A stretch of DNA of 4,556 bases, taken from the IMG/VR virus record IMGVR_UViG_2671180577_000008; one strand, given 5' to 3'. A program made the translations under genes and the position numbers. This document shows, one piece after another, positions 382-4,556 of this stretch. This DNA comes from a virus (Duplodnaviria > Heunggongvirae > Uroviricota > Caudoviricetes). Position 1 is the stretch's first letter. Every line of letters starts with the position of its first letter. Below the pieces are notes generated by a model. It searched no databases and was not told the origin of the DNA. It saw only the letters and a list, made by a program, of their open reading frames with translations.

Positions 382-408
382 AAAAAAAAGGCCGCGCCAT
401 GCGCAGCC
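382..408 (-). terminator. Rho-independent terminator (minus strand) between the moron cassette and the nanS-p-like gene
   Basis: Minus-strand RNA GGCUGCGC-AUG-GCGCGGCC: 8-bp GC-rich stem (one G-U pair), 3-nt loop, followed directly by U8 (plus-strand A8 at 382-389). No T-tract on the plus-strand side, so unidirectional. Confidence 0.6.
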
Positions 409-609: not shown

Positions 610-777
610 TCAAGCATTATGCAGGCTGTTTCTTTTTATCACCGGCCACAGCAATACCACAATGCCGCAGACCAGCACCCCATCCGCCAGCACCGACATG
701 ATTCTGCTGGTGAAATCCACCATCACCACCAGAAACAGCAGGAGTGCAGCCACAGTCAGGCGCAGTTTTACCGTCAC
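610..777 (-). CDS. Small hydrophobic protein (55 aa, two predicted transmembrane helices), translationally coupled to the upstream TerB-like gene; function unknown
   Basis: Not in the supplied ORF track as such. Minus-strand GTG at 777-775 overlaps the TerB-like stop (GTGA) with GGAG 8 nt upstream; stop TGA at 612-610. Translation: MTVKLRLTVAALLLFLVVMVDFTSRIMSVLADGVLVCGIVVLLWPVIKRNSLHNA. Alternative internal ATG at 723 (37 aa) has no usable SD. Start assignment is uncertain. Confidence 0.4.
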   Translation of the reverse strand: MTVKLRLTVAALLLFLVVMVDFTSRIMSVLADGVLVCGIVVLLWPVIKRNSLHNA

Positions 778-1206
778 AGGTAATTCTCCAGACGAAGACC
801 CAGAACACCGGCAATCTCTTCCAGCACCTTGCGCTCTTCCGGCTCAATTTCGCCGTCTGCCTCCGCAATGGCCACCGCCACATCCAGCACATCTTCCGCT
901 TCACGCGTATCGTGTTTCACATCCTCGATCTCACGTAACGCCGCACGACGACCAGTTTTAAAGTTCGTATCCAGCTGACCGATAATGGTTGCGCTAATCG
1001 CATTAATTTCTGACGTAAACGCGTACAGCGCAGGCTGATTACGCAGTACCTGTTCGATCTTCGCTTTCTAGGAAGCCTCACATTCACCATCTGCATAGGC
1101 CACCAGGTAGGCGGCGTTAATCACCACCTGTGCCAGATCGCGTTTTTCAAACTTTTTAATTTCCGTTGCCGCTCTGCGGGCTTTTTTTACCAAAAATACC
1201 AAACAT
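774..1206 (-). pseudogene. TerB-family (tellurite-resistance TerB-like) gene disrupted by a +1 frameshift in an A7 homopolymer (1182-1188) and an in-frame amber codon (TAG at 1070-1068); intact length would be ~143 aa
   Basis: ATG at 1206-1204 with AAGGAA SD 7 nt upstream. Frame A gives MFGIFGKKSPQSGNGN then stop (1158-1156). The +1 frame continues protein-like: ARRAATEIKKFEKRDLAQVVINAAYLVAYADGECEAS-TAG-KAKIEQVLRNQPALYAFTSEINAISATIIGQLDTNFKTGRRAALREIEDVKHDTREAEDVLDVAVAIAEADGEIEPEERKVLEEIAGVLGLRLENYL-stop(776-774). The repeated xADGExxxxE blocks and the C-terminal VAIAEADGEIEPEERKVLEEIAGVLGL are as recalled for the TerB fold. The other two frames are closed around both lesions. Confidence 0.6.
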
Positions 1207-1288
1207 CGTGACGTTCCTTTGGGTGGGTGAGCCAACGCCCGGGAGCGATCTGCCCACAGAGAAAGTCACACTGACCACTCCGTAAGCT

Positions 1289-1298: not shown

Positions 1299-1341
1299 GA
1301 AAGGCTCTGTGGTTGGTATGCGCCGGGCGTGGCGCAGATAC

Positions 1342-1365
1342 AAAAAAGGCCCGCAAAAGCGAGCC
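1342..1365 (-). terminator. Rho-independent terminator immediately downstream of the tRNA cluster (minus strand)
   Basis: Minus-strand RNA GGCUCGC-UUUU-GCGGGCC (7-bp stem with one G-U pair, 4-nt loop) followed by U6 (plus-strand A6 at 1342-1347), 17 nt after the argO-like 3' end. Confidence 0.55.
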
Positions 1366-1381
1366 GGGAAAATAAGTGTAG

Positions 1382-1455
1382 CGCGTTGTACTGGAGTCGA
1401 ACCAGTGACCGATTGCTTAGAAGGCAATTGCTCTGTCCTGCTGAGCTAACAACGC
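1382..1455 (-). tRNA. argO: tRNA-Arg, anticodon UCU (reads AGA); prophage argO-type; CCA not encoded
   Basis: Minus-strand sequence GCGTTGT-TA-GCTC-AGCAGGACA-GAGC-A-ATTGC-CTTCTAA-GCAAT-CGGTC-ACTGG-TTCGACT-CCAGT-ACAACGC-G folds as a canonical 74-nt cloverleaf: 7-bp acceptor, 4-bp D stem, 5-bp anticodon stem, loop CU-UCU-AA, T-loop TTCGACT, discriminator G. Confidence 0.85.
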
Positions 1456-1468
1456 AGAATACCGATAA

Positions 1469-1544
1469 TGGACCACCACCGGGGACTCGAACCTCGCACA
1501 CTCAACTTAAAGGGTTGACGCTCTTTCCTGATGGCTAGTGGCGG
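1469..1544 (-). tRNA. argN: tRNA-like gene, argN-type by position and backbone but degenerate: anticodon loop CC-UUU-AA (UUU with C33), weakened D stem; possibly a pseudo-tRNA
   Basis: Minus-strand sequence CCGCCAC-TA-GCCA-TCAGGAAA-GAGC-G-TCAAC-CCTTTAA-GTTGA-GTGTG-CGAGG-TTCGAGT-CCCCG-GTGGTGG-T-CCA. Acceptor pairs 7/7 (one G-U), encoded CCA, T-loop TTCGAGT. Only 2 of 4 D-stem pairs form, one A-C mismatch in the T stem, C instead of the near-universal U33. Backbone aligns block-by-block with E. coli tRNA-Arg(UCU) as recalled (TAGC, AGAGC, CTTCTAA versus CCTTTAA, GGTTCGAAT versus GGTTCGAGT). Confidence 0.5.
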
Positions 1545-1545
1545 T

Positions 1546-1621
1546 TGGTGGCCCTTGCTGGATTTGAACCAGCGACCTGGCGATTATGAGTCGCTCGCTC
1601 TCACCACTGAGCTAAAGGGCC
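1546..1621 (-). tRNA. ileZ: tRNA-Ile2 (anticodon CAU, lysidine-type, reads AUA); prophage ileZ-type (tools often label it tRNA-Met); CCA encoded
   Basis: Minus-strand sequence GGCCCTT-TA-GCTC-AGTGGTGA-GAGC-G-AGCGA-CTCATAA-TCGCC-AGGTC-GCTGG-TTCAAAT-CCAGC-AAGGGCC-A-CCA, a 76-nt cloverleaf, near-identical in layout to E. coli ileX as recalled. Confidence 0.85.
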
Positions 1622-1630
1622 GGGCGCAGG

Positions 1631-1659
1631 ATAATAACGTTACGAAATCAATGTTGCAA
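1631..1659 (-). promoter_or_regulatory. Candidate sigma70 promoter for the tRNA cluster
   Basis: Minus strand TTGCAA (1659-1654), 17-bp spacer, TATTAT (1636-1631); predicted start ~7 nt downstream, within a few nt of the mature ileZ 5' end at 1621. Confidence 0.45.
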
Positions 1660-1722: not shown

Positions 1723-1757
1723 ACACAACAAAACCCGCTTGTGGGCGGGTTTTGTTT
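1723..1757 (-). terminator. Intrinsic terminator hairpin (candidate tR'); T-rich on both sides so potentially bidirectional
   Basis: Plus 1730-1753 aaaacccgc-ttgtgg-gcgggtttt: GC core CCCGC/GCGGG extended by A/U pairs. The minus-strand RNA is followed by UUUUGUUGUGU, the plus-strand RNA by UUUUGUUUGCUUUU. Lies ~45-75 nt downstream of the candidate pR' start. Confidence 0.55.
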
Positions 1758-1798
1758 GCTTTTGCCATCACGTACAAAATCGGCAAAATATCAGATTT
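1723..1798 (-). ncRNA. Predicted short (~70-76 nt) terminated pR' leader transcript, analogous to lambda 6S RNA / the Stx-phage StxS sRNA; candidate only
   Basis: Defined only by the candidate pR' (-10 at 1810-1805, start near 1798) and the tR' hairpin ending near 1723. No coding capacity in the interval. Confidence 0.3.
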
Positions 1799-1804
1799 GC
1801 ATGA

Positions 1805-1833
1805 AATATATGCCTTTCAATCTACTTTTGCAA
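1805..1833 (-). promoter_or_regulatory. Candidate late promoter pR' (with associated Q-utilisation region), overlapping the 3' end of the Q gene
   Basis: Minus strand TTGCAA (1833-1828), 17-bp spacer, TATATT (1810-1805); immediately downstream of the Q stop codon (1819-1817) and upstream of the tR' hairpin, the expected lambdoid arrangement. Confidence 0.45.
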
Positions 1834-2506
1834 CACTTTGCTTTGAAAATGCCGCCTTTTGTTTTGAACGTGTTCTCATTACAAATAATAAAGCCTCACT
1901 ATCCAGTCGGTGAAAAATGTGTTTCATTGCAACCCAGTGACGAGTAAATGTTTTGGACCAGTTTTTAGTTGTCACTCCCGCCAGTAATGCCAGCTCCTGA
2001 TATTCATAACCTTCCCCACCAAAAAGTTCTGCTTTTACTGCCTGCGCCGCCAGCCAGATTAATTTTTTCAGGCGTTCCTGCGTTTTCCCAGCAATTTTTC
2101 TGGTACCGGATTGAGTATTAAATTCATTCCACGCCCACTGTGTTATCGCGATCTGATATTCCCAACAAATACTCCCGCTGTAACACCACAACAACCAGGC
2201 TTTATGATGTTCTTCAAGAGACAGAACAGCCCGCCGCCACGATGATGTCGAAAACTCAACCGGACTGACCAGAGGAATTGACGTCACCTTCGCCAGCGAT
2301 TGCTTTCCCGGGATTGGTGGATTATCCCGCGTTATCATTTTTCCAGTCACTTCATCGCGGTACCGGATTTTTTTTCGCCTGTAACGCCCTGTATCGAACA
2401 TGGCATTCTCCTGCCAGGCTTCAAGCTGACCTTTTGTTGCCCCACTCAAATCAGCGGTGGCGATAATGAGCTGCTCACGCACAAACTGTAAATAGTGGTT
2501 ATTCAT
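1817..2506 (-). CDS. Late-gene antitermination protein Q (229 aa), probably Q82/QuuQ-like; called from gene order, not from a recognised motif
   Basis: ORF track 1817..2512 (GTG); preferred start is ATG at 2506-2504, which overlaps the rusA stop as ATGA, with GGAG 5 nt upstream. Sits between rusA and pR'/tR'/tRNAs/late genes. Protein MNNHYLQFVREQLIIATADLSG... has no lambda-Q-type paired CxxC zinc finger, so it is not lambda-type Q. Confidence 0.6.
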   Translation of the reverse strand: MNNHYLQFVREQLIIATADLSGATKGQLEAWQENAMFDTGRYRRKKIRYRDEVTGKMITRDNPPIPGKQSLAKVTSIPLVSPVEFSTSSWRRAVLSLEEHHKAWLLWCYSGSICWEYQIAITQWAWNEFNTQSGTRKIAGKTQERLKKLIWLAAQAVKAELFGGEGYEYQELALLAGVTTKNWSKTFTRHWVAMKHIFHRLDSEALLFVMRTRSKQKAAFSKQSVAKVD

Positions 2507-4273: not shown

Positions 4274-4405
4274 CTAATCTTCAAAAGCAGAAAAACCAGC
4301 CTTAATCCCAGCTTCTTTCAGAGACGGCAACGATGTGACAAATTCATTTGCACGCAAAATAAAACCATCCGTCACAAGCCCATCCACAAAATGAATTAAC
4401 GCAGC
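4274..4405 (-). pseudogene. Possible 3' remnant (last 43 codons) of a prophage gene truncated by the IS629-like insertion
   Basis: Minus-strand frame open from the IS boundary (4405) to TAG at 4276-4274: AALIHFVDGLVTDGFILRANEFVTSLPSLKEAGIKAGFSAFED. The same frame continues into IS sequence only as unrelated residues. No start codon or SD in the segment; it could also be noncoding. Confidence 0.3.
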
Positions 4406-4556
4406 TGAACCGCCCCGGGAATCCTGGAGACTAAACTTCCTGAGAAAGAGGTAAACAGGATGACTAAAAATACTCGTTTTTCCCCTGAAGTCCGTCAACG
4501 GGCAGTCCGTATGGTTCTGGAAAGTCAGGGCGAATATGACTCACAATGGGCGACAA
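4406..4556 (+). mobile_element. IS629-like (IS3 family; IS629/IS1203) insertion sequence, left end only; element continues beyond the window
   Basis: Terminal TGAACCGCCCCGGGAATCCTGGAGACTAAACTTCC... begins at 4406 (IS3-family TG terminus) and is followed by the orfA start; matches the IS629 left end as recalled. Confidence 0.75.
4460..4556 (+). CDS. IS3-family transposase OrfA (IS629 orfA), N-terminal 32 codons; 3' partial
   Basis: ATG at 4460 with AGAGG/CAGGA SD upstream. Translation [32 protein letters not shown], the helix-turn-helix N-terminus recalled for IS629/IS1203 OrfA. Open to the window end. Confidence 0.8.

Follow-up and report, generated by a model that had tools for sequence, protein, structure and literature searches.

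The question raised by this locus is what a short segment at the end of a phage Q antiterminator gene (positions 1833-1723, minus strand) does for the prophage that carries it. The segment belongs to a stretch of 4,556 nucleotides (IMG/VR record IMGVR_UViG_2671180577_000008, Caudoviricetes), the whole of which is called the window here. The original prediction, made from the letters of the sequence, was that a compact pR'-tR' unit lies downstream of Q and gives rise to a terminated leader RNA of about 70 nt. This proposal is borne out by the family of the Q protein, by the pause element at the beginning of the transcribed region, by the terminators found at the same place in relatives and by the IsrJ RNA of Gifsy-1. 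The segment is very probably the late-gene control cassette of a lambdoid prophage of the phage 82 type, with a predicted terminated leader of approximately 72 nt. The anatomy of the sequence, the family of Q, the conservation of the cassette and its homology to the isrJ locus were established directly in the present work, and these are set out below before the mode of action is considered.

Genomic context and distribution of the locus

All the features of the cassette, and the genes of the window taken in their order, lie on the minus strand. The genes for a DUF968 protein (3924-2869) and for RusA (2868-2503) are followed by the gene for a Q antiterminator of the phage 82 family (1817..2506, 229 amino acids), which ends with a TGA stop codon at 1819-1817. 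On the 3' side of Q are found, in this order, three tRNA genes, a TerB-family gene, a DUF3927 gene, an STnc100-like RNA region and the start of the DUF1737/nanS-p gene. For the small mechanically called ORFs at 1720-1947 and 1752-1913 on the plus strand and at 1640-1786 on the minus strand, the Pfam search gave no match.

The surroundings of the cassette are 99.2-99.6% identical to PPompW prophages of E. coli O145:H28. A 121-bp region containing the cassette was matched in 1,819 of 5,426 complete E. coli genomes, and O157:H7 strains carry it at three places each. One of the O157:H7 copies is the Sakai prophage Sp12, which has the gene order of the window and in which the equivalent of the leader runs from 2241063 to approximately 2240991 on the minus strand of NC_002695.2. 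The leader with the hairpin version found in E. coli (type A) is present in about a quarter of the complete E. coli genomes, again with three copies in O157:H7.

Several other features of the window were noted on the way. The TerB-family accessory gene (774-1235, minus strand) is interrupted by an in-frame stop codon near 1068-1070, and for the O157:H7 copy of this gene RefSeq gives a pseudogene flag and an internal stop. A strong match to the Rfam STnc100 model (100.8 bits, for a gathering score of 47) was obtained at positions 433-605 of the minus strand, in the interval that separates the DUF3927 gene from nanS-p. Convergent prophage sRNAs were reportedly described at this site by Tree et al. 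in 2014. The early side of the prophage segment adjoins an insertion sequence, with the orfA of an IS3-family transposase starting at 4459 (4400-4556, plus strand).

Candidate late promoter and pause module

The Q ORF matches the Pfam family PF06323 with an E value of 1e-90 and is 76% identical to the Q protein of phage 82 over all 229 residues. A consensus scan places a candidate late promoter pR' at 1805..1833 on the minus strand, made of a -35 hexamer TTGCAA (1833-1828), a 17-bp spacer (1827-1811) and a -10 hexamer TATATT (1810-1805). The stop codon of Q lies inside this spacer, which agrees with the earlier claim of a promoter overlapping the end of the gene. The two hexamers match the consensus at nine of the 12 positions, and sites of this quality number 10 in the window versus 4.3 +/- 2.4 in shuffled sequences. 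A match of this kind is not significant by itself and, for this reason, the case rests on the comparison with relatives: the fixed register of the site on the Q stop codon in approximately 40 loci, together with the agreement with the positions described for pR' of phage 82, lifts the putative promoter above chance.

The comparison with phage 82 was made through published positional descriptions of its late promoter and through the end of its deposited Q record, and the likeness reported here rests on these two sources. The last bases of that record are TTGCAAAACTGGATTAA, and the record ends with ATATTGCAAAACTGGATTAA, from which it follows that the same -35 region TTGCAAAA stands at the same register on the stop codon of the phage 82 Q gene. 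In phage 82 the Q-binding element lies between the -35 and the -10 (PMC4914094), and by analogy the element of the window would be expected in the spacer at 1827-1811. Only 11 bases of the spacer can be compared between the two, of which eight are identical and three differ (AAGTAGATTGA versus AACTGGATTAA). Among the relatives, four classes of spacer were found.

Transcription is predicted to start at the first A of an AAA run, 7 nt past the -10, at position 1798 of the minus strand with an uncertainty of 1798-1801. In the alignment with the Rfam isrJ model, the first base of the model falls on position 1801, which is 2-3 nt upstream of this predicted start. Slippage at the A-run has been reported for the phage 82 promoter, as far as can be told from a title cited in PMC5001585, and such slippage could account for the more upstream start of the isrJ model.

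The late promoter of phage 82 has a -10-like pause element that is nearer to the consensus than that of lambda and is accompanied by an extended -10 (PMC5001585). It has GCC at +15 to +17, followed by an AT-rich stretch, and polymerase pauses at +25/+26, with U at +25 (PMC5001585). Counted from a start at 1798, the minus strand of the window matches this description position for position, and a pause module is thereby predicted at 1773..1793. It consists of TG at 1793-1792 (+6/+7), a -10-like TATTTT at 1790-1785 (+9 to +14), GCC at 1784-1782 (+15 to +17), the AT-rich GATTTTG at +18-24 and a predicted pause at U +25 and A +26 (1774-1773). The extended -10-like element, the GCC and the U at +25 thus stand where PMC5001585 places them in pR' of phage 82.

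On the opposite strand, the consensus of a CII box (TTGYN6TTGY) is found at 1828-1841, where it overlaps the palindromic -35 hexamer TTGCAA, and again at 1752-1765. The curated record of phage 434 annotates a CII site and the -35 of paQ at the equivalent spot. The signal is statistically weak, with three matches in the window versus 1.46 expected.

Putative terminator and predicted leader RNA

By sequence and by fold, a putative intrinsic terminator tR' occupies 1723..1756 of the minus strand. Its stem-loop, AACAAAACCCGC-CCACAA-GCGGGTTTTGTT, covers 1756-1727 and is followed by GTGT. The GC core pairs 1749-1745 with 1738-1734, an A-rich run precedes the hairpin, and the U-rich tail TTTTGTTGTGT corresponds to 1733-1723. 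If the count begins at the GC core, seven of nine positions in the minus-strand tail TTTTGTTGT are T. The consensus scan reported this hairpin on the plus strand only. This is an artefact of the scan, in which the A/U pairs are counted into the stem and no T-run is left after it. The predicted start at 1798 and the foot of the hairpin are 42 nt apart. The original prediction had placed a GC-rich hairpin with a U-rich tail within about 50 nt of the promoter and the RNA ends near 1798 and 1723; the hairpin is where it was said to be (1756-1723), and both ends agree to within approximately 3 nt with those placed in this analysis.

The RNA that would result is a terminated leader of about 72-76 nt of the IsrJ type (1726..1798, minus strand), a prediction drawn from the fold, from a sub-threshold match to the isrJ model and from the homology with Gifsy-1. 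A 72-nt RNA covering 1798-1727 folds into two hairpins with -25.8 kcal/mol (z = -4.65), and none of 200 shuffled sequences folds as well. The first hairpin spans 1760..1788 on the minus strand (+11 to +39), is present in both the minimum free energy and the centroid structures, and is closed by UUUUGCC/GGCAAAA with three inner pairs.

The U-tract of the terminator deserves attention. Among 78 close relatives in IMG/VR, T7 or T6 is found in most, while the interrupted form TTTTGTTGTG is found in eight of the 78, and in the window the tract is broken by a G after four U. With the interrupted tract, a crude terminator score of the d'Aubenton-Carafa type falls from approximately 22 to approximately 5, a change of which only the direction is meaningful, since the same score is negative for the proven IsrJ terminator. 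The interruption and the lower score indicate that termination may be leaky: in this allele, weaker termination may allow more read-through into the tRNA genes.

Conservation among relatives

Relatives of the cassette were gathered by BLAST and by a 23-base degenerate pattern that covers the promoter and the initial transcribed region. The pattern matched 32 stretches in contigs representing one genome per species, 29 of them in Enterobacteriaceae or in DNA of enterobacterial appearance, including Citrobacter, Enterobacter, Kluyvera, Raoultella, Leclercia, Scandinavium, Siccibacter, Huaxiibacter, Pseudocitrobacter and others. The three further matches, in metagenome-assembled genomes that are not enteric, were set aside as chance matches. 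The block is also found in phage 434, PhiR47_2 and Gifsy-1, as well as in Klebsiella, Enterobacter and Salmonella phages.

Taken together, approximately 40 loci, spread over more than 10 enterobacterial genera, have the cassette in one fixed register relative to the Q stop codon. Where the upstream sequence is long enough, almost every locus has a Q82-family gene whose end lies 14-17 nt inside the motif. The Q82-family genes at these loci are 57-100% identical, with a Q match that is partial in a few. The blocks TTGCAAAA and AAATCTGATAT are almost invariant across the relatives. A terminator was recognized clearly by a simple script in 37 of 41 units, and by eye in the other four. Among the close relatives of Q in IMG/VR for which enough sequence is available, the cassette is present in all 78.

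The leaders that follow the invariant part fall into two length classes, of approximately 53 nt (phage 434 and loci L017, L036 and L049) or of 70-82 nt. In the long leaders, the first hairpin extends from +11/+13 to +36/+39 and occurs in three unrelated sequence versions; it is absent from the 53-nt class. Both the terminators and the first hairpins behave as modules that are swapped among relatives and are not homologous to one another. From 24 leaders aligned with MAFFT, RNAalifold retrieved no more than a part of the terminator, a result that is uninformative given that the modules are swapped and non-homologous, which also precludes a column-wise test of covariation.

The tRNA genes and the downstream terminators

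The three tRNA genes that follow the cassette (1381..1621, minus strand) were identified with ARAGORN, Rfam and alignment as a tRNA with a CAU anticodon (Ile2/Met type), a diverged argN-like middle gene and a tRNA-Arg with a UCU anticodon. They are preceded by a promoter-like site of their own, TTGCAA-17-TATTAT (1631..1659, minus strand), found by the consensus scan and followed by a GC-rich discriminator, CCTGCGCCC. After the tRNA genes, the scan finds a second putative intrinsic terminator, GGCTCGCTTTTGCGGGCC followed by TTTTTTGT (1339..1365, minus strand), that is conserved in Sp12 and Sp5. A third, GGCTGCGCATGGCGCGGCC followed by T8 (382..408, minus strand), lies before nanS-p.

In the Stx2 phage Sp5, the promoter-like site, the tRNA genes and their terminator form one module that stands behind an unrelated Q and pR'. 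The conservation of the module in this setting fits with the tRNA genes having a promoter of their own. Both statements made earlier about this region hold: two further terminators do stand between the cassette and nanS-p, called by the scan at 1365-1348 and 408-390, and the separate promoter of the tRNA genes is supported by the site at 1659-1631 and by the conservation of the module in Sp5.

The middle tRNA gene (1469-1544, minus strand) was called as tRNA-Lys with a UUU anticodon by ARAGORN, and was not reported by the Rfam tRNA model at E <= 1. It is a diverged argN with small deletions relative to the argN of Sp12 and Sp5, and may be a pseudo-tRNA or a retargeted tRNA.

The isrJ locus of Gifsy-1

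The relative that bears most on the nature of the leader is found in the Salmonella prophage Gifsy-1, where the block TTGCAAAACTGGATTAAAACGGCTATATTTTATGTAAATCTGATATCG runs directly into the Rfam isrJ element (100.3 bits). The Gifsy-1 cassette (L002:1501-1607) was compared with positions 1833-1727 of the window. IsrJ is a 74-nt RNA for which coordinates have been listed and whose expression has been followed by primer extension. The isrJ model (RF01393) aligns with the window over its full length (1801-1729) with 20.5 bits, and with PhiR47_2 with 30.4 bits. The score of the window does not reach the gathering score of 37 and the leader is, therefore, not a member of the Rfam isrJ family. As judged from position and architecture, it is a homologue of IsrJ.

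Between Q and the promoter, Gifsy-1 carries a P1-like insert, in which the Rfam models C4 and c4-a1b1 cover the region of IsrK. Since this c4/antirepressor module, with IsrK inside it, lies between Q and the promoter, it is isrJ and not isrK that takes the position of the late leader in Gifsy-1. On the evidence of the sequence, isrJ is the Gifsy-1 copy of the cassette formed by an 82-type late promoter, its pause site and its terminator. In the searched papers that mention both IsrJ and antitermination, isrJ is not called the late promoter, nor was a description of IsrJ as the late leader of Gifsy-1 found.

The cassette itself is textbook biology, of which the window holds a further copy. The modestly new point is that IsrJ can be explained as a by-product of an 82-type late promoter. 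An RNA associated with Salmonella virulence would thereby have a simple origin, in transcription that begins at the Gifsy-1 late promoter and stops at its terminator. The explanation also bears on how the phenotypes of isrJ deletions are read, given that such deletions remove the late promoter and the terminator as well. The late-gene switch can now be placed in a class of prophages that is very common in E. coli, with several members in O157:H7 and O145:H28, which tells annotators where Q would act and what it would gate: the tRNA genes, the accessory genes, nanS-p and, beyond the window, the lysis genes.

Proposed mode of action and alternative explanations

From this anatomy we infer the activity of the promoter, the pause, the loading of Q and the efficiency of termination, together with the presence and the level of the RNA in the host. 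In the proposed mechanism, a constitutive sigma70 promoter pR' would overlap the last codons and the stop codon of Q, with the Q-binding element carried in its spacer. RNA polymerase would start at approximately 1798 with sigma70 retained, and sigma70 would re-bind the extended -10-like element TGaTATTTT (+6 to +14), causing polymerase to pause at about +25. When Q is absent, polymerase would escape from the pause and terminate at the hairpin and U-tract (+43 to +75), leaving a two-hairpin leader RNA of approximately 72 nt. When Q is present, the paused complex would be modified and would read through tR' and the terminators at 1365-1348 and 408-390. Transcription would thereby extend into the tRNA genes, the accessory genes and nanS-p and then, as in related prophages, into the lysis genes beyond the window.

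Other explanations of the same segment were weighed against this one. That the promoter hexamers match the consensus by chance, and that the hairpin serves as an early-operon terminator after Q or as a bidirectional insulator, is exceedingly improbable. The abundance of nine-of-12 matches in the window (10 versus 4.3 expected) would allow it, as would the A- and U-rich flanks of the hairpin, which could terminate transcription on both strands, in line with the plus-strand call of the scan. Nonetheless, this explanation is already contradicted by conservation: the promoter and the initial transcribed region are near-invariant across E. coli, Klebsiella, Enterobacter, Citrobacter and Salmonella, whereas the identity of Q drops to 57-65%. 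Moreover, the block reproduces the pause element of pR' of phage 82, and its copy in Gifsy-1 is a mapped transcription unit. Very unlikely, too, is a promoter that would mainly drive the tRNA genes in the lysogen by read-through of a leaky terminator, with the hairpin acting as an attenuator instead of a tight Q-gated stop. The tRNA genes are only about 105 nt downstream and the U-tract of the window (TTTTGTTGTGT) is weakened in comparison with the T7 or T6 of most relatives, but the strong U-tract is kept in most alleles, many relatives have no tRNA genes after the cassette, and the tRNA module, equipped with its own promoter-like site, discriminator and terminator, is maintained behind an unrelated Q and pR' in Sp5.

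A role of the leader as a trans-acting sRNA, bound by Hfq or ProQ and directed at host or prophage mRNAs in addition to its role in cis, in the manner reported for StxS and proposed for IsrJ, has more in its favor, although it is still considered unlikely. The fold gives a compact leader with strong structure, in which the 5' tail is free and the terminator is preceded by an A-rich linker. In Gifsy-1, IsrJ is stable and abundant, the deletion of isrJ lowers invasion and the translocation of effectors, and a copy on a plasmid complements the defect; IsrJ is among the listed ProQ-associated sRNAs and is described by Rfam as an Hfq-binding RNA. StxS, moreover, sets a precedent for by-products of pR' that gain targets, and O157:H7 genomes carry three copies of the leader. 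Against this, the sole part that is conserved across genera, from +1 to approximately +17, is already explained by the pause element at the DNA level. The first hairpin, the linker and the terminator are swapped or missing among relatives, so that no further conserved seed is visible, and no target of IsrJ is known in the literature. The Hfq-CRAC list for O157 Sakai, which excluded peaks less than 100 nt from a gene, has no EcOnc entry at the equivalent position of Sp12. The K-12 transcriptome annotation is of no use for this comparison, given that the Q of the Qin prophage (YdfT) is unrelated. A more specific form of this proposal, in which the E. coli leader with the type A hairpin would be a constitutive, chaperone-bound trans-acting sRNA on host virulence or stress genes and the EHEC counterpart of IsrJ, is judged decidedly doubtful. 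With it would go a broader claim, in which all RNAs of the IsrJ type would be by-products of 82-type late promoters and would share a 5' seed, AAAUCUGAUAU, set by the pause element in the DNA.

Comparison with known late-promoter RNAs

The original prediction described the leader as resembling 6S and StxS. This stands as an analogy of origin and fails for the sequence, which has no blastn similarity to those RNAs, for the family of Q and for the processing of the RNA. Like StxS, the leader would be a by-product of a constitutive, Q-antiterminated pR' that stops at tR', and it is found immediately after Q, ahead of accessory genes. StxS (EcOnc15), however, goes with the 144-residue Q of Stx1 and Stx2a phages, which is unrelated to the 229-residue PF06323 protein of the window. 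It is a 74-nt 3' fragment cut by RNase E from a 258-nt pR'-tR' precursor, whereas in the window the primary transcript itself is predicted to be approximately 72 nt. Binding of StxS to Hfq and its targets rpoS and stx1B have been demonstrated. Comparison with the Q-stx1 intergenic region of Sp15 by blastn gave only a 27-nt terminator-like match (E = 0.017). With a Q of another family and no shared sequence beyond a generic terminator stem, the leader was rejected as a member of the StxS group.

With lambda 6S, which is made in lysogens, the leader shares the character of a terminated late-promoter transcript, and a sigma70-dependent pause and a Q-binding element, both known at lambda PR', are predicted in the window. 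In lambda, by contrast, termination occurs at +193 (PMC4914094), giving a leader of approximately 190 nt, the pause is at +16/+17 (PMC5001585) and Q belongs to a different family. A blastn comparison with the pR'-tR' region of lambda (44.5-45.2 kb) gave no significant match, and the leader is not assigned to lambda 6S.

HnrS (EcOnc10-12), a multicopy prophage sRNA that was named recently, was considered on account of the three near-identical copies of the cassette in O157:H7. It is a 66-nt RNA with 15 nt of complementarity to the end of mazF, located in the late genes of Sp9, Sp10 and Sp12. The complement of mazF is absent from the window even when three mismatches are allowed. In Sakai Sp12 the complement is flanked by the Rz and terminase genes, approximately 6.7 kb from Q, and HnrS was thus rejected; a BLAST search of phages with the mazF complement gave no useful match. 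EcOnc49 of Sp9 and EcOnc33 of Sp6 were likewise rejected as equivalents, the former because the Q of Sp9 is different and the latter because of its position after nanS-p.

Short late-promoter RNAs of a similar kind are listed for phages 21, phi80, 82 and P22 in the StxS paper (PMC7547250), where the late promoter of phage 82 is cited as giving a short terminated RNA in the absence of Q. The locus of the window shares with phage 82, whose late promoter is a system of the Roberts and Hochschild laboratories, the family of Q (76% identity), the -35 region TTGCAAAA overlapping the end of Q, and the layout of the initial transcribed region, with the extended -10-like element, GCC at +15-17 and U at +25; it differs at three of the 11 comparable bases of the spacer, where the Q-binding element is expected. 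With IsrJ it has in common the promoter and the first 15 or so transcribed bases (84% identity over 51 nt, E = 1e-9), the length class (74 nt for IsrJ versus approximately 72 nt), the position downstream of a Q82-family gene and, by the folds, the two-hairpin architecture of 5' tail, hairpin, A-rich linker and terminator. The sequences of the first hairpin and of the terminator are unrelated between the two, and only Gifsy-1 has the c4/antirepressor module between Q and the promoter. Given the match of the cassette and the homology with Gifsy-1, IsrJ and the phage 82 leader are the closest known relatives of the RNA predicted here.
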